A DNA stretch of 64,000 nucleotides from Acidimicrobiaceae bacterium (GCA_028404505.1 JAOOBM010000002.1:7027-71026), one strand, 5' to 3'. Counted from the stretch's first letter, positions 6,896 to 51,731 are shown. Notes: generated by a model from the letters alone, not told the origin. A program made the numbers and translations.

Positions 6896-7432
6896 TTAAT
6901 TCAACTCCTTAATAAACTTTTCAATTAATTTTTTTTGATCAGCTTTTGACATTGAAGAAGCTACTTTTTGAGAAATCTCAAGAGATAGATCAGCTACCTC
7001 ACTTTTTAACTCAGTTGAGACTCTTTCTTTTTCAGCGTCTGAGTCTGACTTTGCTTTTTCAATTATTGCTTCTGCTTCAGCTCTCGCTTCAGTTAAAACA
7101 TCTTCTTTAAGTTTTTCTGCAGCTTGCTTACCTTCATCAATAATTTTTTGAACTTCTGCGTCAGCGTTTGAAACTAAAGCATCATATTCTTGCTTTGATT
7201 TCTCAGCTTCTGATTTAGTATCTTCAGCTTCCTTTATCTGTCCTTCTATTTCAGCAGATCTTTTATCAAGTGTTTCGTTCATGGCAGGTAAAGCCCACTT
7301 CCAAACGAAGAAAAATACTACTGCAAAAGCTACTACTCCAGCTACTAATTCTGAAGTTGCAGGCAGCAATAAGTCAACACCTGAGCTTGACTCTTCTGCT
7401 TCCGCTAAAAATGTATCCAAATAAAACATCAT
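6896..7432 (-). CDS. atpF: Fo ATP synthase subunit b
   Basis: Single N-terminal TM helix plus a long charged coiled coil, in the expected operon position. Confidence 0.8.
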   Translation of the reverse strand: MMFYLDTFLAEAEESSSGVDLLLPATSELVAGVVAFAVVFFFVWKWALPAMNETLDKRSAEIEGQIKEAEDTKSEAEKSKQEYDALVSNADAEVQKIIDEGKQAAEKLKEDVLTEARAEAEAIIEKAKSDSDAEKERVSTELKSEVADLSLEISQKVASSMSKADQKKLIEKFIKELN

Positions 7433-7434
7433 TT

Positions 7435-7650
<216 letters not shown>

Positions 7651-17335: not shown

Positions 17336-18905
17336 TTACTGATTCGCTAAGATCATCATCAACTAAATCTATAATTTCTTCATCATCAATCTTTAAACTT
17401 TCTTCATAGTCAGCGGGTCTATTCAATTCAGCATATTTTTTCATGAAGTTACCTAGTAGTAAAATTATGAATATATAAATTAATAAAACAAGCATGAATC
17501 TGTAAGCTAGCTCTCCACTCTGTAATAAAGTTTGTTGTAATTCATTAAATTCACTGTCAGGTGGTAAGACAAGGATTCTTATAAATAGCCAAATACTTAT
17601 CAAAAAGCTAACAATTGGCATTGCCTGATAAATTCCATCTGAGTCACCAATTGCATCAAATAACTCATTCCCTCCCCAAGGAACTGCTTTAAATATAACT
17701 CCCTCTAAACACATTAAGTAAGTAAGTTTACAAATTGCCATTAAAACACCTGAAGAGCTAACCGATTCAAATGATGTTGCGTAGAAGAAAAAATATCCAA
17801 CAATTGAAAGACTTATCATTGAATAAAATTTAGGTGACAATTCCGCTTTTGGTCTCTTCGAAACTACATGTATTGCTGCTATAAAACCAAGAATAAATCC
17901 AAAAGGAAGATCAATAACAATGAAGAGTATTGTTGAAAGTACTGCAAAAAACATGGCTTGTGGATTCCAATCAAATTTCACAATTTGGTCATACAGAAAA
18001 TATTCAATTAGAGATTCTATACCCTCATAAAAGAAGGTAACAATAATAAGTCCAAATAAGACACCAACAAAAATTGCTAAATTCTCTTGCCGTACTTGAA
18101 ATGTGAAGCCCTCCTCAACAAATGCATACAAGAGAGATGTAATTAGAGCCACAAGCGTTATCTCCATTGCTGTCTCAAGCCTTGTTTTATTTCTTAATTT
18201 GCTTTCACGATTTGACCACCTGACTCTATAGTATGCAATTATTCTGTTGAACCACTCCTGGGCGAGTAAAACTCCATAAAATAGAAATATAATTCCAGAA
18301 GTTATAAGAAATGCAAAAGCATTTTTAGCCTGATCTGAAAAATCAATATCACTGAAGAGTGGAATAGTTGTAATGAGCTCATTTGTGAATGTTATATTTG
18401 TTGATGTATCAATTACTGTTTCTTCAATAATAAAATCATCGACGGGAACAGTAGTAGTTATTACAGGAAGATCAGGAATTTTATTAATTATATACTCATC
18501 TGAAGTAATTTCAGTAGTAATGTCTCTATAACAATAAACCGAAGCGCAGTCCGGTCCACTATATTGTGTGTAGTTAGTTGATAAAATTTTTAAAATTATC
18601 GAAAGATCTGTAGTCCCATCCCATTGAATAATTTTTTGTCCTTTTTCAGAGTAATCGATAATCTCCAATGGTTCTCCTTGCAATCCATCAGATGTAAGTT
18701 CACGAACTGAAATAATCAATTCATCAATATTTTCAAGACCACTAACTAACCATGAAATTTGTAAATTATTTTCATCTAATCTTGCAGATTCTATTTCAAT
18801 AGTTGCTTCATCAGTATCATGTAAATTTGTATCTAAATATCCATTGGGGTATACACCGTTAAAAAAAGAAAAGAAAAAGATTAATGAAATAATTATTTTT
18901 TTCAT
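17325..18905 (-). CDS. polytopic membrane protein of unknown family (signal peptide, ~200-aa extracytoplasmic domain, ~8-9 TM helices, acidic tail)
   Basis: The start is placed at ATG 18905..18903, which shares one base with the sortase TAA stop (TAATG) and yields the signal-like MKKIIISLIFFFSFF. The ORF track extends to 18980. Confidence 0.7.
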   Translation of the reverse strand: MKKIIISLIFFFSFFNGVYPNGYLDTNLHDTDEATIEIESARLDENNLQISWLVSGLENIDELIISVRELTSDGLQGEPLEIIDYSEKGQKIIQWDGTTDLSIILKILSTNYTQYSGPDCASVYCYRDITTEITSDEYIINKIPDLPVITTTVPVDDFIIEETVIDTSTNITFTNELITTIPLFSDIDFSDQAKNAFAFLITSGIIFLFYGVLLAQEWFNRIIAYYRVRWSNRESKLRNKTRLETAMEITLVALITSLLYAFVEEGFTFQVRQENLAIFVGVLFGLIIVTFFYEGIESLIEYFLYDQIVKFDWNPQAMFFAVLSTILFIVIDLPFGFILGFIAAIHVVSKRPKAELSPKFYSMISLSIVGYFFFYATSFESVSSSGVLMAICKLTYLMCLEGVIFKAVPWGGNELFDAIGDSDGIYQAMPIVSFLISIWLFIRILVLPPDSEFNELQQTLLQSGELAYRFMLVLLIYIFIILLLGNFMKKYAELNRPADYEESLKIDDEEIIDLVDDDLSESVNEW

Positions 18906-20563
18906 TATCCAAATACCTCTACCCTTTCCAGTTGTCCAATAACTACAAGCCTTTCTCTTGCAGAGAATTTTGGATGACATGTGGTTAACGTTATTCTGTC
19001 GTCACCATAGTCCTCCAGTACATAATTATCTTCGGGAGATACGATCTTCACATCTATAACTCGGTATTCATATTGATTTGTATTTGTTTGAAATATTATT
19101 GTTTCACCAATCTGAACTTTATCAAGATTGCCGAATGGTGCACCATATGTAGTTCTATGTCCAGCAATTGCGAAGTTTCCTCCCGAACCTGGAAGTGCAG
19201 TTCCAAGTATATAACCGGGTCCATACTCTAATTTGTTACTCGTTGCACCAAAGACCACATAATGATTTATATTTGCAGATAGGATTGTTAACCTTCCAAC
19301 AACATCTGGAAGAAACTTTGCCTTTGCTGCTTGATTAGTAAGAGTTTTTGTTGCAATTGAGATAACAGACTCTTGAAATTCATCTGTTTGTGATAAATTA
19401 TTTAATGAACTATCAGTCGCGATGTTTTTATTTCTTAATTCAGAAAGTTTAACATCACTAACATTAAATTTATTTTCTAATAGATATTGCTCATCATTTA
19501 TTACTGAAGTAGAAAAAAATGTTTGATTAATTGAATAAATCAAAATTAAAAAACCTACTATTAATAAACCTACACCAAGTGGAAGAAGTGATCTTGTATT
19601 TGTACTTTCAAATGATTTTTTAGTTTCTGCTACTTCTCTTTGTCTTCGGTTTTTTTTTACAGGTAAATCAAATTTAAGTCTTGGAATGTTTCTATGTTTC
19701 TCAACTGGTTTTTTTGAAAAGACAATAGAAAATCGATCAGATGTCATCAATGCCAGCTTTTCTAATAACATTTCTTTTGTTACATCAACTCCTAAGTACT
19801 TTGCATTTTTAGATATATTTTTGACTGCAGATGTTAGGTAGTCTATCTCCTTAAGCATTGTCATGATGTCTTCTGTGAAATTATCAGGCTCAGCAATTAA
19901 AGGATTAAATCTCTCACCTACATCTACACTGATAATAACTTCTGTGCCAATAGCATTCTCAAGTACCTTTTTTAAAATATTTGATTTTACATAAATTTCT
20001 GAAAGTTCTACCTCAAAATTCTGATTAACATAACTCAGCGATTTTTGATTTTCAATTTCGTCTGAAGATAGATTTATTTCATTTCCGGAATCATCAGAAT
20101 TTATTTTTTTTAAGTCTTTTTGGTTTATTAAATTTTCTATTTCTTTAGCACTACTTAATTGATCCCTTATTTCAGTTGCTATATCAGGATTCTCAAGCAA
20201 ATATAATTTAGCTTTTTCTTTTCCATACCCGAGTTTTTCTTCGCCATATAAAAACCAATTACCTTTTTTTGTTACAATTTTTTCACTTACAGCAATATCT
20301 AGAAACTTACCATCAAATATTTGCTCAGCTACATCTTCTTCAATTTCTTCATATTCAACAAAAATATTTGTACTAGGATCTTCTTTCTTGAAACGTGAAA
20401 AAGGCCTTTTAGCTTTTATTGGTTCGATTGAATTTTCTTCTAAAAGTGTTGCATCTGAAATGACATCTGGATCATTAGATCTTTTTCTTCTAATTTTTAA
20501 TACAAATAGAACGGCAAAGATGTTGATAATTATTATCAGTAAATATATAAAAAAATATGCCAT
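18905..20563 (-). CDS. sortase (TLxTC type, class E-like) with a long N-terminal extension: TM1, ~300-aa cytoplasmic region, TM2, catalytic domain
   Basis: The C-terminal domain carries AIAGHRTTYGAPF (His), ITLTTCHP (Cys) and SARERLVV (Arg). The ATG at 20563 directly abuts the TAG stop of the giant gene. Confidence 0.85.
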   Translation of the reverse strand: MAYFFIYLLIIIINIFAVLFVLKIRRKRSNDPDVISDATLLEENSIEPIKAKRPFSRFKKEDPSTNIFVEYEEIEEDVAEQIFDGKFLDIAVSEKIVTKKGNWFLYGEEKLGYGKEKAKLYLLENPDIATEIRDQLSSAKEIENLINQKDLKKINSDDSGNEINLSSDEIENQKSLSYVNQNFEVELSEIYVKSNILKKVLENAIGTEVIISVDVGERFNPLIAEPDNFTEDIMTMLKEIDYLTSAVKNISKNAKYLGVDVTKEMLLEKLALMTSDRFSIVFSKKPVEKHRNIPRLKFDLPVKKNRRQREVAETKKSFESTNTRSLLPLGVGLLIVGFLILIYSINQTFFSTSVINDEQYLLENKFNVSDVKLSELRNKNIATDSSLNNLSQTDEFQESVISIATKTLTNQAAKAKFLPDVVGRLTILSANINHYVVFGATSNKLEYGPGYILGTALPGSGGNFAIAGHRTTYGAPFGNLDKVQIGETIIFQTNTNQYEYRVIDVKIVSPEDNYVLEDYGDDRITLTTCHPKFSARERLVVIGQLERVEVFG

Positions 20564-23500
20564 CTAAAATTTGAATGCTCTTCTTAGTATAAAAGCACCA
20601 AATCCGATTAGCATCAATCCAAATGAAATGATTAAACCACCAACATTTCGACCTGTAAATGGTATTCCTGGTGTTGGAGGGGAATCATCAGTAAATTGTG
20701 GTGTAAATGGATTCGATGCATCCTCTATATAAACAAATTCAACGAAATCATCACCTGGAAGGAACAAGAGTGATTCACCATTATCCTCCATTTCTTGATC
20801 GTCGCCATCACCTTCCATAACATTATCTGTATTTTCAGTAACTTCTACTTCATCGATAGGATTCTGTTCCTCATTAATTGGACGCTCATCCTCGATACAA
20901 TCAGCATCCTTGTTCTTAATCATTTTTTGAACTTTACCATTTTCATTGTTTGTTACTTCAAGAGCAACCGTAAAGAATTTATTTTCTCCTACTTCTATAG
21001 AGGAGAAATCTATTGTTTGGCCTGCTGGGACGTTGACAGTCTCTTGAGCAATGAGTGTTGTGTTGATCCAGATTTTCTTTAGAACTTTTGCAGAAACATT
21101 AGATCTTGAATTATCTACTGTAATACCAAACTCTGCTCCACCGTCTTCGAAGTCACAAACCCTATTAGTTGAAACAATCGGCTCAAATATATATTTCACA
21201 GGTGGCAATGTTGTAGTAGTGACTGACTGACATATAACTGTTTCTGCTTGAGATAACTGATAAGGAGAGTTGAGGTCGAACTGTGTAAAGCTGTTTTCAA
21301 CTGCTCTCCACTGTATAGTTGTATTATCAGATACCGTTAATTTTCTCGTTACAGGACTTGATGCGTTAACTGTGACTGTGTCATAGTTGGTCCATGGTCC
21401 ATTATTAAATTTATATTCAAGATAAAATGTCTTAACTTGATCAGATAGGTTTCTCATTTCTATTGTAGATACGGCAGCACTTTCAGTACATTCAGATATA
21501 GTTTGAATCAATTGAGGATTTGAGATTAAACCATCTCCACATTCTGAAGTTGATTTAGACGGTGTTTGTTGATAGCTTACGTCACTTGTGAGCTTATATT
21601 CAAATACAATTTGATCTCCATCATTTAAAGGAACTTCAATAGAGTAATTCGATGAAGTTGGATTTATTGAAACCGGTGCTGGACCAGACTGTGAAGGTCC
21701 ATTATTGATGGAGTAGTTGTACATCGCACTAACTGATTGAGGCCCAACATTTATAATTCGCAATTTTGCTGATTTACTACTGTTGTCAGCAGGACATATA
21801 ATTTCTGTAACAGCAGTAATTGCGTTAGCTTGAGAACAGTCGTTTCCTGTGCCGGAAACGTATTTATAATCTGTATCAGTAGCTAGTTTGTATCTCCATT
21901 GGAAAGGAGTATTTGCTGGTATTTTTACACCTCCAGTTGAAGTATACGTACTATTTACTGAGGGTGATCCAACACTCTGCCAATCTGCGTTATTGATATT
22001 GATGTCATAAATTACAGTTGCAACTTGACCGGGGTTAACAATAGACAATTTAGCAAATGAGCTACCGTCTACACATTCATTTGTATTGTATGCACTGATA
22101 ACATTTGTAACTGTAGAACAGTCTGATGGAGCAACATTAATTACTGGTTGAGACCAATTTGTTGTACCAGAAATTCGATATCTATAGGTGTAGTAGTTTG
22201 TAGTAAATGGTCTACTATCTACATACGGCTGCAAACTACTAACAGTCTGTGTACCCATTGAAAGATAGTTAGCATTATCTGTTGAATACTGAACTTCAAC
22301 TTGTTTTGAGGCAGTTGAACTACTTGTAATTGTAAATGTAGATGTCTTCGTTGAGGTAGCTCCATTTGGGGTACACGAGTTGGTTGCTGATGCTGACAAG
22401 CTATCATCGATACAGTTCACTTGAGCAGATCTTGTTTCGAAGTTTTCCTGTGAATTAGAATAATCACCCTGAACAATAGATGACTTCCATTTCCAGTTGA
22501 TATATTGTCCAGAGGTTAAATTTTGATAATTAGAGCTATTCTCCTGGCCAACTTCAACAGTTACCTCTGTTAGGAATTGATAGGAACCACCGCTGATTGA
22601 GTAATAGAGTTCATAATACTGGGTTAATGATCCAGTATTTTTAATCGTGATTCTGGAATCTCTCGTTAGATTTGTACAAGCGTCAAAAGCAACTGTAACG
22701 TCAGATGTCTGTATACAACTAACCGATAAAGCTTCAAGCTCTGTATAGGTTCCAGTTAATGTACTGGAAAGTCCCAATCGATATTTCCATTTAACACTTG
22801 AACCACTAAGAACGCTAGGAGAATCCAGGACCAATGGGGTTCCATTTGTAACAGAATAAATTCCTTTAAGGAGGTAGCCGGACCCTGTGTCATACAAAGC
22901 CTCAACATATACTGTCTCATTTGAGTTATTTGTAAATGTTAATTCTGATATTCTCTTTCCTGCAACACACTCTTTAAGAACATTACTAACAGCGACTTGA
23001 TTAAGAATAGGTGTTTCACAATCTAGTGCTGGTATCGTGTCCATTGTTGTCTCTGATGCGGATGTAAGTTTTACGACCGTTCCAGCATATTTATACTTCC
23101 AGCTAATAGTTTGACCACTTACTATTGTTTTGGCTATCGGCAATTCATTACCAGCAGTTATTTCAACTGTCGATACTTCGGTAGTCCAATCTCCAGTATT
23201 GAGTTTAGATTGTACCGTAACAAGCATTGGGGTTGCGCCTGTGTTTTTTAATACAAGTGTAGAAGTTGCTGTTTGATCTGTACATGTGCTGAATCCATGA
23301 CTTACTGTTAATTGGACTCCACAATCAACCTCTTCAGCTCCTCCTGCAAGAGAAATAAAGCTTGCATTTGTTAAAGCTGTGGTGTTGTAAGCAGCTTTAT
23401 ATTGCCATTCGATAGTAGTACCAGAGGTTACAGATTGTGTAACCGAATTAGCTTGCCCTGCAGCAAGCGTTCCATCAGAGGATGTTACTTTATTAATCCA

Positions 23501-26500
23501 TACTCCACCATCAATTCTGTATTGTATGTGGAAATAAGCTGCGTTTGCGCTTGATGACAATGTGGAATAGTTGAAAGTTGAAGTCTTTGCACCAGAGACA
23601 CATTGACTTAATGAAGTATATGGAGTGGAAATGCTTACCCCTGTACAATCAACTACCTCTGAGGTCGGTGGTGTAGTCCAGGTTAAAGAACTAAAATCAT
23701 TTCCCGTTTCAGAGACTTTGTATCTCCACGTTATTGCTTGTCCCTGTTGGACAGATATTGGTATGTCTGTTGAATTTCCAGTCGATACCACAACTTGTTG
23801 AGCTGCAGTAGTCCAGTTGTTGCTATTAGCTCCTTCAAATGTGTATTGGGCTTGATAGTATAAACTTCCCGAACTTGAGTTGAATATGTTTAACTTAGAG
23901 GTCTTGTAGCCATTAGCATCACAGGCGGGATCCATTGTAATAGAGATATCTTCACCATTACAGGTAATAGTTGTCGCATTTAAAGTTGTCCATCCAGTTG
24001 GAAGATCTGCTTGAGTTTTTGCAACTTTATATTGCCACTGTATCGTCTGTCCAGCTTGAACATTTTGTGAATGTGAAAATTCACCATCTACACTTATTTC
24101 TTGGTCTGATTTATCAATCCATTCTCCAGAACCAATTTTGTACTGAACTTTGAAATATGCTGAAGTTGTAGCGCTTGAGCTATTTTTTATTATGAATTTC
24201 ACATTCTTTGTGTCGTTATAACAAAGACCAAATGATTGAACAACACTCGGATCAATATTTTCACAATTTATAGTCTTTTTAAATGCGGAGTTAGCAGTGT
24301 GATCAACCCAGGTTGCAGATGCCAAACCAGCATTAGAAGTTGCTGCTTTATAACGCCATTGGATATATTTTCCAGAAGCTACAGTCTGTGTAAATGCCTG
24401 TGGTGAACCCGCGGTAAGTATTAAGTCATTATCTGCGTCAGCATATGCTGAGGTACCCTCAATAAAATACTGGACATGATAATGTACGTCTCCAGCCGTG
24501 TTGTTGGTTAGGACAAAATTAGATACTTGGCTATTGCTTATACATGTATCTAATGTATGACTGATGAGTGTATCTAATGAGCAATCCTCGGGAGTTTGAG
24601 TACTTTCATTTATCCAGTCACTTTCAGCAGGAGCTGTAGCTGAGGTCATTGGATAGTATCTCCATTGAATTGTTTCTCCATTAGGGACACTTTGATGTAT
24701 GACATTTTGCGCTCCCACACCTACGAAATTTGCTTGGCCGCTCGTGTGATATTGCCAAGACTGATTATCGCCACTCAAATCATATTGAACATAAAAGTAT
24801 GCTCCATCATTGGCAGAAGAAGAGTTTTCCATAGTAAAAGTCGATCTTCTCTGACCACTTATACAAGACCCAAATGCTGAAGAGCCGGTTGCATCAAGAA
24901 TTACACAATCAACAGTAGCTGAAGCCGTGAGTTCTACGACTTCCGCATTTGCATAATCATTAGGTGTATTACTAACCTGATATTTCCATTGAATATTTTT
25001 ATCATGTGGAACATCAACGGTTAATGTTCTATTTGTAAAATTGGGACCAACTTCTAAATTTGCATCTTTTAAAACCCAAGTATTGCCAGTTTTATAATGA
25101 ACCTTAAAATAAACAGTATTGTTTGTTTCATCATTTGTTACATTAAGTGTCGCTGTTTGAGATCCGTTATCACAAGAACCCATTGAATTAGTGACTGTTA
25201 CATTTATTACGCAGTTCACATAACCACTTGTATCATCTTCTGTCCAGTTGTTTAAGAAGTCTGCTGAAGTATTGACAGATTCGTATCTCCAGATAATTTT
25301 CTGTCCTTCAGTTATTTGTAGGTTATTTGATGTTACCTGAGAAGCTCCTGGAGCAACTACAGTATCTATTAACGAGGAGTTTGTCCAATCTGTGACTGTT
25401 GTAGTAGGCGTCACAATTTTGTATTGAACACGGAATTTAGCAGCAGATGTAGAAGCGCCGGTATTAGTTACCTTAAATGTTGCTGCTCTGAAATTCGATC
25501 CACAACTTGAATATTGTGCTTCTACTGTTACTAAACTATATGGACAATTGATTGTCTTTGTATCCGTGTAATTCCATTCCTGTGCATTTAAATTACTCAA
25601 AATTTTATTAACTTTATAACGAATTTGGATTGTTCCCTGGTGCACAACAGTCACTTGCATAGTATGGTTTTCAGTTTGTCCATTCGTTACAGATTCCGCT
25701 GTCTTAAATGCAACCCAATCGGTATCAGTATTTCTTTTGTATTCAACAGTGAAATAAGCTGTGTCAGAACTTGATGGAACTAGGTTTACGATTGGTGTAG
25801 AAGAGCCGTTTCCACATGTTGTTGAATCTACATTTATATCTACTGAACCACCTGCACAGCCACAATCAACTGTTGCACTAGCAGTTACCTCTTCCCACTC
25901 TTGACCATCAAAGTCACCACCATTGGTTGTATCTTTTACTCTCCACTGTATCGTCTCACCATCTGGGACAAATTTTGATAAACTATTATTAGTCGCGCCC
26001 CCACTGACCGAGATATCGAAGGCAGATTCTAGTGAATCCGTTGCAGATAACCACTGACCATTTCCAATCTTGTACTGCACTTTATAGTAAGAGGTGTAGT
26101 TGTCATTATTTTTAATAGATAATGTAGAGGTTGCTCCTAAATCATTACACTCACAAGTTGTTAATGTCTGAGAGTAAGTTGAGTCAGGATCACAGTCAAC
26201 ATTTACAGTTGTTGTGTTGACCATATTATGGTCCATGAAATTATCATTGAATTCATTTGAAGAATCGTCAACTCTATAGTGTTCATAATATGACCCTGTA
26301 CTTGTCAAACCGCCTATATAGTCAAACTGCCTTGCGTTGATGTTTGTATTTGAATATAAGTTGTGATATGTAGTATAAGAGGTGCTAGTGTTAGGCAGAG
26401 TATGATCTCTTACGTAGCCCCATTTGATTTCAAGAGCAGTACCATTAGTTACTTTCACACTTGGCAAATTAATAGTTTCCGTATTAGATAAAGCCGCTCT

Positions 26501-29500
26501 CTGATCGATATGTTTAGACCACGTAACACCCCCGTTTGTTGAGTATTGATAGAAAAGTCTTGCAGGTTGATAAGGATCTAAATGGGTAACCGTAGTGTCA
26601 TTAAACGTAAACTCAACCTGTCCTTTATTTTCTAAACAAGTCAACTGCGTAGTAGTAAGTGTGACAGGTTCTACATCATTCTGATCACAATTGGTATCTG
26701 GTGCAATAGTCATTGTTGTAAAAACACCAGTGAAATTACCCATTGTAAGGTTGTTAGTTGTAGAGGTGTATGTTCTATATCTAATTTGGTACTGATGTGT
26801 TGAGTCAGTAAGAATTACGCCAGCTACGTAATGATTTTGGCTAAAGTTACTTGGCCTGATAAATCCGTAGTAGGTAGGGTGTGTATCATTAAAATGGCCT
26901 TTTGTTCCAGAGTTGGAGGACCAAGAATAGGTGGTTAAGTTTGAGTACTGCATTCTACCAAGAGGTTTCCATGTGTTGCCATCATGTGAGATTTCAGCTT
27001 CTATGTGAATATATGAACTGGAAGTAAAGCTTGCAGATGTGCCGTTTCTTTTAAACTTAAACTCTAACTTATCAGCTCCATAGAGGTTACAAGATACATA
27101 ATCTGTGCTTACTGTGAAAAAGTCATCTGTGCCACAATCAATCGTTATTAAATCATTTATAACTTCTGTACCGTATGATCCGTTTTGTGTGCTCTCAATG
27201 TGATATTTAATCAATACAGTATCATTATTTCCATACGATTCTGGAAGAGTAACCGTACCGTTACTCGTATTTGCATTTAACGTAGCGACAGACCAGTTCG
27301 TATCATAACCCTGGCTATTCTTATTTATTTTGTAGTAAAAATAATTAGTAGTATTAGAAGAGTTCGTGTATCTTATCTTTAATTGTTGTGAACCGTTGTA
27401 ACATGCTTCTGGTGTTGTATTTTGTTCAACTGTTACGGATGATACATCAGAAGAACAGTTGATCAATAATGTACCCGTGGTAGTGAAGGCACCAGAAGGT
27501 GGTGATGTTGCTGCGTATCTGTACTGCATAACAACTGTCGTACCCTGAGGAATTGTATCCTGTATTGTATATGTTTTAACCTCACCTGGAAGAATCATCT
27601 GATAGAGTGTGGCGTTACCGTTATTTGGATCATAGAAGGCGTCGTTGTAGTTTTGCCCTAGATCGGTTGAGTACTGTACATGAAAATAACCAGTAGCCCA
27701 ACCATTGTTGCCAATTGTAATGGTCGGTGTCGCACCGCCAGATACACATGTTCCAAGAGCAATAGATGCTGTGCTAGCTCCAACAGTTGGACAGTTCACT
27801 GTCTTTTCCGCTGAATAATAGGTATTAGAATTTGAGAAATCTCCACTTATATAGGAGAACTGAAATTTATATTTAATTTTGCCAGCATGATTAACTGTTA
27901 ATTCTTTTGTATAGGTAGTACCCATTGCATAATTAGTTTCAACAGGTGTCCAGTTACTTCCACTATCTGTCGATTGCCAAAGCTTCAGATAATACTGCAC
28001 ACCACTTGGTCTTGTAAGCGTGAGTGTAGAGAGTGCAAAACCACCAGTTTCAATTGTATTTTGACATTCGCCAATAGTGACAAGATCGCTGTAAGTGTCA
28101 TTTGTTGAATCAGTCGTAGTTGTTGTTCCCCATCCAGATGTATTAATTTCTGGCTGACAATCAGTAGTTCGCTGTTCTGTAGTTTTATTGTAATTTCCAA
28201 GTGTAATCCAATCAGTTGAGCCAAGTTCATTTTCTGCATACGCAACTTTGTACCTTAGTTTCATAACTGATCCTGTGACATACCTGGTTGAAAGATATAT
28301 ATAACGATTGGCACTCGAACTTGCCATATTTAGATTGTTTGTTGCTTGAACTGCCGTGTATCCGTCAGCTGAAAGACTTCCTGAACCGTTACTTACAGCA
28401 AAGTAACTATTGTCATGGTAAGTGTCATCCATCCTATAAAAAAGATTGGTGGTATAAAAATTGGCACCATTATCATCTGAAACCTCGAATGCATACCACA
28501 GAGATGTTCTGTTTGGATCATTATAGTTTTGGTTATACAAGACCCAGCCCATCCACTGCTTATTGTCTACACAGCTATTTTGTTCGTTAGAAGGTCTTGT
28601 TTCGTATTGATAACTGCTGTTATTATATGGATCTACATTGATATCACAGTCGTGATGATAACTTAACCCACTTGTTGGAGAGTTTAAATACTGATAGGGA
28701 TAGGCTTGCGTATCCCAAGTTGGATTCTCTGTATAAGATTTTTGAATCCTCCAGAACATGTAAGCGTCTTCATTAACCCCATAGGTTACGGCACCAGCTG
28801 TGTATACAAATGTAGTATTAGCAGCTACTGAGAATGTCGTGGCGTCTGGCGTGTTGTAGTTGGGACTGTAGGAAACACTTGTGCTGAGTGTTGAGGCAGT
28901 TCTTGATGGGTTAACTTTAAAGTAAATTGTTTGTGATTCGTTGTTGGTTATTGTCAATGTTGATGTCTGTCCAGCTGAGCTACAAGAAGTAACATCATAA
29001 CTTGCAGAGATATCTGGAATACATTGATGTATTTGTCCGTTAGTGAGATTATATGGATACGCCGTAGTGTTGGTCCAATCCGGTGTCTCAATATAAGAGC
29101 CCTGCACAAGCCACTGCATATATCCGTAAGTTCCATCAGGGTAAAGCTTTCTCATATTTGGACTGCTTGATGCATCATATGTGAGTGTAGAATTTGCCGG
29201 AACAGAGAATGTAATTGCTTCGCTATTAATGTCATAATTCGAAGTGTTAGATGTGCTGTAGTCATAAGGTGTATCGTTTTTTGTAGGAACTGCTCTGAAA
29301 TACAGAGTCTGGGATTCGTTGTTGGTTATTGAAAGAGTAGAGTATTGACCATTAGCTGAACACTCACTAAATGATGCTGATTGAGAGTAATTAGCAATAC
29401 AGTTTGCCTCTCTACTAAATACTGCCCAAGACGCATTTTGTGTAGAGTCAGTAGGGTTTGTTGCTGCAATTCGATACCTAAAATATCCTGTTGAGGAGGT

Positions 29501-48720: not shown

Positions 48721-49061
48721 TGGTGGAGGTGCGGGGAGTCGAACCCCGGTCCTTTTAAGCTACCCAACAGCTTCTCCGAGCGCATCTGGTGAAATACTAT
48801 TGAGAGAGTCACCAGAAACAAATTCTCAATAGTTTTTACCTTAAATCTTGAAAGCTAGCCGGTAATCTAACTTAGCATCCCACATTTCGACGCCGATACT
48901 ATCCGAGGTGGGAGCCCCGATAGTCGACGAGCAACAATTAAGCTGCTACGGCCAATTTAGGTTTGGCAGTTATCTTTTTTTTCCTACGTTTTTAATGAGG
49001 CCCTAGGACCCTCAGCTCGCTACTGAGAGGCTCGCTTCAAAGTCGAAGCCAGTTCACCCCC
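48721..49061 (-). ncRNA. ssrA: tmRNA (SsrA)
   Basis: The reverse complement begins GGGGGTGAACTGGCTTCGAC and ends GGTTCGACTCCCCGCACCTCCACCA. The candidate tag ORF GCC AAA CCT AAA TTG GCC GTA GCA GCT TAA (48967..48938) encodes AKPKLAVAA. Confidence 0.9.
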
Positions 49062-49110: not shown

Positions 49111-49758
49111 ATGAAAATTGATAAACAAACTTTTGAATTAGATGAAGAACTAAGTATCTCAATTAGTTTTGAGGACAATGATGGTTTAATTTTTGTACCT
49201 AAAAATGTAAATGTACAAGTCAAAATTGTAAATTATTTCGGAAAGATTGTAATTAATGATTTATCTATAAAATACCTTGAAGATGAGCTATCCCTTTCAA
49301 AAGTTGGATTAGAACAAGCCTTAAATAGTTTGGATTTAAAACTTCTTGATAGATTTTTGTTTAAGCAGTTAAGTGACAAAGCAACGTTTAATTATTCACC
49401 ATTTGATTCATTTTTAGAATATGATTTTTCTGTATATGAAAAATCGAGAAGACCTAGTGATCTTGATTGGTCTATGTTTGGGTCTTTGTATGTTTTTGCT
49501 TGTAATGTTATTCCGGAATCAATAAAAGTAGAGTTAACTTTAGCAAAATATTTAAGAGTTTCTGAAGAAGTATTTAAAAGATTATTAAAAAAAGTTCCAG
49601 ATAAAATATTTAGAAAAACAGGACATCTTGAATCAAGAGGAGGAAATTTAACTTTCGATGCTGAAGAATTAATAAAGAAAAATCTTGTTGATGCCCAAGC
49701 GAAACTGTTTGAAGAGAGTCCTTTTTTAAAATTTCACTCTGGTTCTGATTTAGTCTGA
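49111..49758 (+). CDS. hypothetical protein (no recognisable domain)
   Basis: 215-aa ORF with no signal peptide. It overlaps the neighbouring gene convergently by 25 nt. Confidence 0.5.
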   Translation: MKIDKQTFELDEELSISISFEDNDGLIFVPKNVNVQVKIVNYFGKIVINDLSIKYLEDELSLSKVGLEQALNSLDLKLLDRFLFKQLSDKATFNYSPFDSFLEYDFSVYEKSRRPSDLDWSMFGSLYVFACNVIPESIKVELTLAKYLRVSEEVFKRLLKKVPDKIFRKTGHLESRGGNLTFDAEELIKKNLVDAQAKLFEESPFLKFHSGSDLV

Positions 49759-50177
49759 GCTCTACTGACCATAGGAATTAGCTTACTGACATCAATTTCC
49801 CATATTTCTCTAGATGTGAATCCTGCCTGCTCCCAGGTAACATCTTCTGTTCTGCCATAGGGCTTACCAGAATATCTATTTGATAAATAATCTATATGAT
49901 CATTAGCGGAAGAGTCTTGAACTATATTTTCTACCACACCTCTTATTTCCCAGCATGTATACATGTCAGTTGGATGAAATATAACAAGGGAAATGTTTGG
50001 TTCCTGCCTAATATTCTCTGTTTTTTTTCTTCCTTGTTCTGTATTGATTAGGATCTTATTATCCTTGTAATCAACCCACATTAGATGATTTTGAATATCT
50101 TTTTCATTAAGTTTGGTTGCTAATGCGCAAAATGCATTGTTATCGATTGCTTGTTTTAGTTCAATTGGAAGTTGCAT
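49734..50177 (-). CDS. pyridoxamine 5'-phosphate oxidase (PPOX-class, FMN/F420-binding) family protein
   Basis: Size and split-barrel-like sequence (ALAT....G.....MW). Confidence 0.55.
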   Translation of the reverse strand: MQLPIELKQAIDNNAFCALATKLNEKDIQNHLMWVDYKDNKILINTEQGRKKTENIRQEPNISLVIFHPTDMYTCWEIRGVVENIVQDSSANDHIDYLSNRYSGKPYGRTEDVTWEQAGFTSREIWEIDVSKLIPMVSRAQTKSEPE

Positions 50178-50207: not shown

Positions 50208-50771
50208 ATGGCATTTATAAAATTGTTCAAATTTCAAGAATCTACTGGCCTTCTTAAAAAAGAGTATGAGAAAGGACTTAGAAGAGCTGGAAGAATTTGG
50301 AATATCCTTACTATTCAATCTCAAACTCCCGAGATTTTAAAAAATTCCATGAATCTATACGGTTCAACGATGTTTGGGAATTCAAACATCTCGAGGTTCG
50401 ATAGTGAATTACTAGCTGTTGTTACTTCTATTTCAAACGAATGTGAATATTGAATAAGGGCACATTTGTATGATCTTCGGTCGGAGACAGATAATCAAAA
50501 ATTAGTAGATGAAATCGCAAAGGACTGGACAACAAGTTCTATTTCATCAGTCCAAATGGCAATGTGTGAATTTGCAAAAAAACTAACGGAAAATCCAAGT
50601 AAAGTTAATAAAAAAGATATTGAATTATTGAGGAGTTACAATTTATCGGATAAAGATATTTCTCAAATCGTCCAGATAATTGCATATTTTAACTACATAA
50701 ATAGAGTCGCAGACGGACTTGGATTAGAACCAGAACAGTTTATCGATGAAAAAGGTTATAAAACCAAATAA
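50208..50771 (+). CDS. AhpD-like / carboxymuconolactone decarboxylase family peroxidase-related protein with an in-frame TGA (candidate selenocysteine) at 50451..50453
   Basis: The two ORF-track pieces (50208..50453 and 50466..50771) are in the same frame. The joined sequence reads ...VTSISNECEY-TGA-IRAH..., which is the family's N.C.YC...H redox motif with TGA in place of the second Cys. The C-terminal IAYFNYINRVADGLG is typical of the family. Confidence 0.55.
50451..50489 (+). other. in-frame UGA plus a candidate SECIS-like hairpin
   Basis: The hairpin spans 50467..50489. Lower stem UGU/ACA plus U-A, a GG bulge, and upper stem GAUC/GGUC with a UUC loop. It starts 13 nt after the UGA. Confidence 0.3.
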
Positions 50772-50816: not shown

Positions 50817-51731
50817 ATGAGTAATAACTCAAGACTACTTTTTTTGTTCATTGCCTTAATTGGAATAGCAGGATTATCCTATGTTATATTTTTTGATGAG
50901 AATACAGATCAGCAAACTGACGTCCAAGTAGTAAATGAAATTGAATCTACTACTACAACATTAATTGACTCCACAACATCAACATCTACCACAACAATAA
51001 TGGAGACTACAACAACATCTACAACTACTACGAGCTCAACAACTACAACTACAATTCCACCAAACCAAACAGCAATATATGCCACTCAAGAAGAGATAAA
51101 TAATAGTAAAAAGATTTCATATGATTTCTTACAAAGTGGTTGCAAAAAAGATGAATCAACTGATTCTGAAAAAGAATGGATTACACCACTTGAATTTTTT
51201 ACATATGATGAAAGTAAAATAAATTTCAGCTTAAAAATTGATTCAACTCTTGGCCTAAAGGTTGATTGTATTGGAAATTTGATAACTTCGATCTTAAATG
51301 ATACGAGAGGTTGGGTTAAAGTAACCGAGAAAGAATTTCAACTAGTTGAAGGTACAGAGAAAGAATTTGAATTCATTTTTGCATCGCCTGAAAAAACTGA
51401 CGAGTTATGTTACCCACTCGAGACAAATGGAATTTATTCTTGCAGAAACGAAGATCAAATTATTATAAATTTTTTTAGATGGGTTAATGGTGCGATAGAT
51501 TTTGGATCGGATTTAGAAACGTATAGATTATATCTTATTAACCATGAAGTTGGACATATCTTAGGATGGGGTCATGTCGGATGTCCTAAAGAAGGAGCAT
51601 TAGCACCAGTCATGATGCAACAAAGTAAATCAACTATGGGCTGTAGACCTTATGGATGGCCAATATATGAAATCTTGGAAAAAGAGTTTGGTATAAATAC
51701 TTATTCTTATTTACCAAGTGAAGACAATTAA
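50817..51731 (+). CDS. membrane-anchored Thr-rich protein with a C-terminal HExxHxxGxxH zinc-metalloprotease-like domain (DUF3152-like)
   Basis: N-terminal TM helix, a poly-Thr/Ser linker, and the motif INHEVGHILGWGH. Confidence 0.6.
   Translation: MSNNSRLLFLFIALIGIAGLSYVIFFDENTDQQTDVQVVNEIESTTTTLIDSTTSTSTTTIMETTTTSTTTTSSTTTTTIPPNQTAIYATQEEINNSKKISYDFLQSGCKKDESTDSEKEWITPLEFFTYDESKINFSLKIDSTLGLKVDCIGNLITSILNDTRGWVKVTEKEFQLVEGTEKEFEFIFASPEKTDELCYPLETNGIYSCRNEDQIIINFFRWVNGAIDFGSDLETYRLYLINHEVGHILGWGHVGCPKEGALAPVMMQQSKSTMGCRPYGWPIYEILEKEFGINTYSYLPSEDN

Follow-up and report, generated by a model that had tools for sequence, protein, structure and literature searches.

An AhpD-like gene of Candidatus Actinomarina with a conserved in-frame UGA in its redox motif: a probable selenoprotein of the CxxU family

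Among the new selenoprotein families that Zhang, Fomenko & Gladyshev described in 2005 from the Sargasso Sea were AhpD-like proteins with a CxxU motif (COG2128), represented by 27 sequences (PMC1088965). In the Global Ocean Sampling data they constituted the fourth most abundant selenoprotein family, with 299 selenocysteine (Sec) forms in 37 samples and 902 cysteine (Cys) homologs (Zhang & Gladyshev 2008; PMC2398784). The family is also included in a 2022 review table and in BSepDB. The gene considered here occupies positions 50208..50771 of a 64,000-nucleotide (nt) stretch from an Acidimicrobiaceae bacterium (hereafter the window) and is a member of this established family, known since 2005. 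An earlier note on this DNA, made without database searches, had stated that AhpD-like selenoproteins were known from marine surveys, and this was correct according to both papers. Like the group named 'AhpD-like 1' (COG2128/YciW), the gene is marine, belongs to the AhpD-like/CMD superfamily, has its predicted Sec as the second residue of C-x-x-U and is provided with a downstream hairpin displaying a G in the apical loop. The earlier members are anonymous metagenome reads, whereas this gene belongs to a named lineage, Candidatus Actinomarina, was present in every species genome recovered and has its hairpin resolved. Its features are as follows.

50208..50771, + strand: coding sequence of an AhpD-like (TIGR01926, peroxidase-related) probable selenoprotein; 187 amino acids, ATG start, TAA stop, a single in-frame UGA

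50442..50444, + strand: codon 79, TGT, the Cys that opens the C-x-x-U motif, presumed to be resolving; in 3c1l and 6k40 its counterpart is the first Cys of CxxC

50451..50453, + strand: codon 82, TGA, predicted Sec codon at the place of the second Cys of CxxC, from its conservation and from Cys homologs

50463..50465, + strand: codon 86, CAT, histidine of the CxxUxxxH motif; H86 was invariant in two alignments

50471..50489, + strand: mini-hairpin resembling a selenocysteine insertion sequence (SECIS), from the RNAalifold consensus of 19 distinct Actinomarina-clade sequences (the window and 23 genome loci)

AhpD of Mycobacterium tuberculosis (Rv2429; TIGR00777) displays a CxxCxxxH site of which the second Cys is the nucleophile. 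Its re-reduction is reported to depend on DlaT, an E2 protein whose lipoyl group acts together with Lpd (Bryk et al. 2002, cited in PMC8945050). This enzyme served as the working model, and the lipoyl-E2 gene found upstream of the closest non-Actinomarina relatives matches the mycobacterial arrangement. The Actinomarina protein, however, scored only 16.2 bits against the canonical AhpD profile TIGR00777 (cut-off 191.95), its fold matched that of canonical AhpD (1gu9) with a template modelling (TM) score of only 0.45, and no ahpC was encountered among its neighbours in the window. As for the RNA signal, in the SECIS of E. coli fdhF a GGUC tetraloop caps a short stem in which one U is bulged on the 5' side, the loop being located 18 nt after the UGA. 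The Actinomarina hairpin likewise displays a GGUC loop, a short stem and one 5' bulge, and lies in the coding sequence just past the UGA. It differs by a loop located 25 nt after the UGA, by a bulged A instead of U, and by a SelB that is called divergent in the preprint "Actinomarina, resolved" (doi 10.64898/2026.04.03.716425).

Among solved structures, the best sequence matches were DR1765 of Deinococcus radiodurans (6K40) together with 3C1L, 2PFX, 2OYO and 2PRR (E-values of 2e-22 to 2e-23, residues 16-176), all sharing the N-x-C-x-Y-C-x-x-x-H layout. These proteins are only ~30% identical to the Actinomarina protein and carry Cys at the UGA position. They are also devoid of the hairpin-bearing D-L-R-x-E-V segment, which is replaced by sequences such as AAVRQLSGD and AALREFSGD. 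According to the summary given in PMC8945050 of Zhao et al. 2020, DR1765 helps the cell to tolerate H2O2, and does so through its CxxC motif.

Translated from end to end, 50208-50771 comprised 187 sense codons and was interrupted once, by a stop at codon 82 (TGA, context SISNECEY*IRAH). Open reading frame (ORF) listing splits the gene into 50208..50453 (81 amino acids) and 50466..50771 (101 amino acids), both in one frame. With Cys placed at codon 82, the read-through protein scored 131.3 bits against the NCBIfam profile TIGR01926 peroxid_rel (cut-off 81.8), over residues 15-176 of 187, and 33.5 bits against the Pfam profile CMD PF02627 (cut-off 23). Two same-frame ORFs parted by a TGA and forming together a full-length AhpD-like protein of 187 residues, as initially proposed, were therefore confirmed. 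The family placement is that given by TIGR01926, which stood in for COG2128. The matches to TIGR01926 and to the solved structures spanned the TGA without interruption. The latter coincided with the second Cys of the redox motif in these homologs (NHCYYCLTAH in 3c1l, NRCVYCAVSH in 6k40), so that the position assigned to it in the earlier note was borne out. The active-site motif was present as C79-E-Y-U82-I-R-A-H86, with U replacing the second Cys of C-x-x-C-x-x-x-H. Profile NF041238 (AhpD_rel_CFYUT (seleno)protein) reached only 50.7 bits where 175 are required, the match being confined to the C-terminal part of its 357 positions.

The AlphaFold model of an 89%-identical ortholog (P0001) showed a single all-alpha domain (pLDDT, the predicted local distance difference test score, 85.6; predicted TM score 0.83), in which position 82 starts helix 80-92; the modelled sequence bears an artefactual tryptophan (Trp) at this position. 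Foldseek matched the model best to 6k40 (TM 0.85), then to 2prr, 2pfx, 3c1l (0.84) and 2oyo, with a range of 0.82-0.85.

In a scan of prokaryotic genomes limited to one per species, 23 loci were recovered, every one in a single-cell or metagenome-assembled genome bearing the label Candidatus Actinomarina or OCS155. Another 80 loci (40-99% protein identity, GC content 0.29-0.73) came from a metagenome scan and four from exact-protein look-up. Every one of the 23 Actinomarina species genomes (71-98% amino acid identity) had TGA as codon 82, as had 24 out of 24 clade sequences when the window was included, with the same protein length and no other stop; the N-terminus MAFIKLF was equally kept in the 23 genomes. 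Over all loci (GC 29-73%), TGA was found at this codon in 105 out of 108, the remaining three displaying TGC, CGA and AGA, respectively. Cys79 was invariant in the 24 clade sequences (17 TGT, 7 TGC). The ratio of non-synonymous to synonymous substitution rates (dN/dS) between the window and six Actinomarina orthologs was 0.09-0.14 downstream of the TGA and 0.04-0.10 upstream. Neither a second stop nor a frameshift was encountered among the 24 orthologs. Codons 83-86 encoded I-R-A-H in every clade sequence, Arg84 being written with five different codons and Ala85 with four; as the codons varied synonymously and the amino acids were kept, this segment is translated. His86 lies between the TGA and the TTG that opens the downstream ORF, and its conservation thus requires read-through. 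The window (GC 34%) aligned colinearly over 6.5 kb, at 97.2% nucleotide identity, with the Actinomarina single-cell genome AH-321-L10 (CACOKA01), and synteny with other species persisted down to ~70% nucleotide identity.

The hairpin downstream of the UGA was delineated by comparison. Its outer pairs are U50471-A50489 and G50472-C50488, followed by the bulged A50473, a five-pair stem 50474-50478/50483-50487 (UCUUC/GGAGA) and the loop GGUC at 50479-50482. A hairpin following the UGA had already been noticed at 50467..50489, 13 nt after the UGA; its existence was confirmed, but its start was displaced to 50471, 17 nt after the UGA. Codons 89-94 (GAT CTY CGG TCG GAG ACA) displayed no synonymous variation in the 24 sequences except CTT/CTC, a change that turns the U.G pair into C-G. 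Codons 91 and 92 were CGG and TCG in 24 out of 24, although CGG accounts for only 1.7% of Arg codons and TCG for 4.7% of Ser codons in the long ORFs of the window, and although three to five synonyms were used for the other Arg and Ser codons of the gene in the same sequences. That a run of rare, GC-rich codons stays fixed in a genome rich in AT indicates that selection acts on the RNA.

Among 86 distinct TGA-bearing sequences from all lineages, a six-pair helix was paired at 79.8% at the same columns, versus 32-54% when its 3' arm was slid. Compensatory changes were found at pair 24-37 (46 C-G, 31 U-A) and at pair 25-36 (68 C-G, 4 U-A). The closest Cys forms (...DYRDEV) displayed an A-A mismatch in the same helix. 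A SECIS-like hairpin at this place, the point on which the earlier note had called for a prediction, is thus backed by the absence of synonymous variation in rare codons together with compensatory changes in distant relatives. The D-L-R-x-E-V/T peptide encoded by this block has Asp and Val codons, and Leu and Glu codons, that are mutual reverse complements.

A subgroup characterised by ...AHGEDLR... (L050, L052, L057-L060, L063, L065, L068, L070, L071, L077, L083 and L088) was devoid of the common hairpin. It displayed a stronger one ~9 nt further upstream (CACGGAG-AGGAU-CUCCGUG, -11.5 kcal/mol), which shows that the SECIS position moved within the family.

The nearest relatives outside Actinomarina were 47-49% identical and came from DNA with a GC content of ~0.64. 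A lipoyl E2 acyltransferase gene (Biotin_lipoyl, E3_binding and 2-oxoacid_dh domains) was located directly upstream of TGA forms (L043, L045, L046, L047) as well as of Cys forms (L048, L112, L113), and a gene for an S10 peptidase was located downstream in all of them (L043, L045-L048, L112, L113). The same E2/S10 synteny thus harbored TGA forms (ECHY-U) and Cys forms (STRY-C, in which the first Cys is lost), the latter having TGC at the codon-82 position. The presence of a lipoyl-E2 gene beside these relatives suggests lipoyl-dependent redox cycling.

In two metagenome homologs the Sec position held an Arg codon (CGA at 844-846 of L026; AGA in L027/L028), each one substitution away from UGA. 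Their downstream hairpin GACCUCCGGGCYGAGGUC was intact. These Arg forms may have exchanged Sec for Arg recently or may be inactive.

With regard to decoding, the preprint cited above reported selC, selA, selD and a divergent selB in 84 out of 84 complete Actinomarina genomes, no selenouridine synthase and ~5 predicted selenoproteins per genome, and likewise in 23 NCBI genomes. Moreover, a gene for tRNA-Sec (anticodon tca) adjoined TGA-bearing homologs in three GC-rich (0.68-0.72) metagenome contigs (L081, 11-103; L082, 155-249; L087, 59-151), lying upstream of the AhpD-like gene by 49 nt to 1.3 kb. These homologs belong to the '...ADDLRAEGA' subgroup and are distant relatives.

On this evidence, 50208..50771 is a real gene, very probably for a Sec-containing AhpD-like protein, with UGA-82 read as selenocysteine; we estimate the probability of the latter at about 0.92. 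The doubt left in this figure stems from the fact that neither a decoding gene nor protein-level evidence was directly seen. The proposal that the locus encodes a Sec protein and not a random pseudogene is supported by the conserved TGA, by a dN/dS of ~0.1 downstream of it, by the alignment with Cys homologs and by the hairpin comparison.

Several observations weigh against this interpretation. Firstly, the hairpin of the window is short and weak (-4.0 kcal/mol with one U.G pair, z -0.64; the same hairpin reaches -6.9 kcal/mol in most other Actinomarina), and the fold of the 76-nt region was no better than shuffles (z +1.15). As thermodynamics fails to single out the hairpin, the case for it must be comparative. 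Within Actinomarina the hairpin changed on one side only (U.G to C-G) and the covariation came from distant relatives. In GC-rich genomes the D-L-R-A-E-V peptide yields a hairpin almost automatically (GAC CUC ... GAG GUC), and the two homologs with Arg at the Sec site retained theirs. No Rfam family matched the locus at gathering thresholds, the window matching only tRNA-Gln and transfer-messenger RNA (tmRNA); according to the Actinomarina preprint, Rfam is without a usable bacterial SECIS model.

Secondly, tRNA-Sec was not found in the 64-kb window (only tRNA-Gln and tmRNA were), nor by ARAGORN at any Actinomarina locus examined. NCBIfam revealed no selA, selB or selD in 27 of the 30 window ORFs of at least 280 amino acids, the giant ORF described below and two neighbour ORFs scanned with Pfam lying outside that scan. 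That none of these genes was to be found in the window had been remarked before, and the tRNA, Rfam and NCBIfam scans agreed. Regular expressions for SelA, SelD and SelB signature motifs had no match among the 112 collected sequences. The Sec machinery of the genus is reported by one unreviewed preprint, the main text and supplement of which mention no AhpD or peroxidase and contain no list of selenoprotein families. Finally, no E2 or peroxiredoxin gene adjoins the AhpD-like gene in Actinomarina, so that the reductant is proposed by analogy only.

Among the alternatives, read-through of the UGA without Sec survived best, and it is very unlikely. A near-cognate or suppressor tRNA would insert Trp, Cys or Arg at a useful rate, and the hairpin would merely slow down termination. 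Such a reading would agree with the decoding machinery not being seen in the Actinomarina sequences examined, with the weak hairpin of the window and with the Arg codons of two relatives, according to which a different residue is acceptable there in certain lineages. However, the site is that of the nucleophilic Cys of CxxC, where Trp or Arg would abolish the chemistry. A sense codon is one mutation away, yet TGA was kept in nearly all loci across very different GC contents. In addition, tRNA-Sec adjoins the gene in three relatives, Sec machinery was reported for every complete Actinomarina genome in the preprint, and release factor 2 (RF2) is present and regulates itself on UGA, as described hereafter. 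Decoding of UGA-82 as Sec accordingly remains the preferred reading.

A genome-wide reassignment of UGA (code 4 or 25) is implied by public catalogues, where more than 30 clusters, including clusters of 549 and 655 members, show Trp at position 82 (NECEYWIRAH; P0001-P0036, P0053, P0055), and these Trp-bearing entries could not be translated from their own DNA under code 11. Other public entries consisted of a 104-residue C-terminal piece only (P0056, P0057, P0060). Reassignment is nevertheless very improbable. The 32 annotated ORFs of the window ended at TAA (25), TGA (6) and TAG (1), and pstS, glmU and pgi ended at TGA where their family profiles end. The earlier statement that TGA is a genuine stop elsewhere, for which pstS was the example, thus held for pstS, glmU, pgi and three other annotated ORFs. 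Among ~17,600 codons of long window ORFs, no in-frame TGA other than that of the AhpD-like gene linked two credible coding ORFs, and none was found at a conserved Trp or Gly of housekeeping genes in the 64 kb.

The window also encodes both release factors, of which prfB (RF2; 57770-58874, - strand) displayed a programmed +1 frameshift site at 58803-58817. A 23-codon ORF in frame 0 (MYKELINKVVDFKERITSAKEYL, ATG at 58874) ends at UGA 58805-58803 in the context AAGGAG-UAU-CUU-UGA-C, and the +1 frame runs for 344 codons. As this autoregulatory site works only if RF2 reads UGA as a stop, UGA is a stop here. The Trp at position 82 is an artefact of gene callers picking code 4 on short AT-rich contigs. 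With the gene carried in catalogues either split or with an active-site Trp, functional and selenium-use surveys will miscount it.

The prfB frameshift constitutes a second UGA recoding event in the window. A six-frame scan for C-x-x-TGA and TGA-x-x-C outside long ORFs gave one more match ('UGSC', 6896-7540, - strand), which was a false positive: it is atpE, the gene immediately upstream of atpF, read out of frame.

For the gene to be a decaying pseudogene, or the TGA an error of sequencing or assembly, a former Cys codon would have to have undergone a nonsense change. TGC or TGT to TGA is a single substitution, and gene callers do split the ORF. This explanation is scarcely credible, given that the TGA recurs in 23 independent species genomes and in all but a few of the 80 metagenome loci, that the downstream half is intact and selected in all 24 orthologs, and that synteny is kept to 70% nucleotide identity. 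Orthologs truncated at varied positions, announced as the mark of decay, were absent. A sequencing error is excluded by the recurrence of the TGA in independent single-cell assemblies and metagenomes, an artefact common to assemblies from independent technologies and samples being implausible.

A split gene, residues 1-81 and 87-187 (TTG 50466) being made separately and then assembled, would fit the TTG start four codons past the TGA and the 104-residue gene calls in databases, but the translated I83-R84-A85-H86 segment rules it out, the CxxUxxxH motif straddles the junction, TTA or CTA, neither of them a start codon, often stands at codon 87 (L008-L023), and the fold is that of a single domain.

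If UGA-82 is decoded as Sec, the steps would be those of the established bacterial Sec pathway, from which they are deduced. At UGA-82 of a translating ribosome, SelB-GTP-Sec-tRNA(Sec) would bind the small hairpin with its GGUC loop 25 nt downstream. Delivery of Sec would compete with RF2, and failure would release an 81-residue fragment with half of the domain missing. In the completed protein, C79-x-x-U82-x-x-x-H86 would be positioned at the start of a helix in the same layout as the CxxCxxxH site of AhpD proteins. Sec82 would act as the attacking nucleophile, Cys79 would resolve the product into a selenenylsulfide and His86 would be part of the conserved site. The dihydrolipoyl arm of an E2 subunit from a 2-oxoacid dehydrogenase would then probably return the oxidised protein to its reduced state, as suggested by analogy with M. 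tuberculosis AhpD and by the gene context of the nearest non-Actinomarina relatives. A peroxidase or disulfide-reductase activity, for which the genetics of DR1765 offers indirect evidence, would serve in peroxide or disulfide detoxification.

Compared with the family as it was known, what is new is modest. It comprises the occurrence of the gene in every Actinomarina species genome recovered, a hairpin resolved with frozen rare codons, the linkage to lipoyl E2 with interchange of Sec and Cys within one synteny among the nearest relatives, and the wide mis-translation in catalogues. The locus is settled as a recoding event and not a pseudogene; how Sec decoding is understood to work is unchanged. 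Actinomarina is an extremely abundant, genome-streamlined bacterium of the surface ocean, whose Sec use has so far been reported only in the 2026 preprint with most target families unnamed. One of its selenoproteins can now be named, an AhpD-like protein with a CxxU motif. The lipoyl-E2 link of the nearest relatives provides a testable reductant for an otherwise uncharacterised family.

A broader reading is offered tentatively and is less likely than not. The protein might be a genus-wide core selenoprotein of Actinomarina, among the few targets that pay for a Sec pathway in a genome of ~1.1 Mb. The SECIS and the D-L-R-x-E-V/T peptide might form one co-evolved module inherited with the UGA across GC contents of 29-73%, and the ancestral partner might be the lipoyl arm of E2. 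If true, this would couple selenium use with central carbon metabolism in a bacterium that ranks among the most abundant of the ocean.

The gene context in Actinomarina was uninformative. It comprised genes for a DAO-family oxidoreductase, tmRNA, an ORF without match, a PNPOx-like protein, DUF3152, a 2-hydroxyacid dehydrogenase and an inositol monophosphatase-family protein. At nearly all Actinomarina loci the AhpD-like gene was located ~1.15 kb downstream of the tmRNA gene. In the window, the latter lies at 48721-49061 (- strand); its tag peptide is AKPKLAVAA in the clade of the window and AKPKLALAA in most others (L001-L037). The ORF at 49111-49758 (+ strand, 215 amino acids, no family match) overlaps tail-to-tail by 25 nt with the PNPOx-like gene (49734-50177, - strand). 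The PNPOx-like gene is divergent from the selenoprotein gene, with 30 bp between start codons and no Shine-Dalgarno-like sequence evident by eye; these two features hint at leaderless or tightly packed expression signals. Promoter and terminator scans around the gene gave results no better than shuffles.

The downstream neighbour (50817-51731, + strand) encodes a DUF3152 protein displaying an HExxH-type motif (HEVGHILGWGH) after a long Thr/Ser-rich linker of low complexity. Elsewhere in the window, the region 18905-31801 (- strand) harbored a giant ORF of 3745 amino acids (20564-31801, ending at TAG) followed by an ORF of 552 amino acids whose C-terminal domain is a class E sortase. This ORF also resembled, over residues 84-136, the RecA C-terminal domain (TIGR02012, 39 bits), which is an odd combination.

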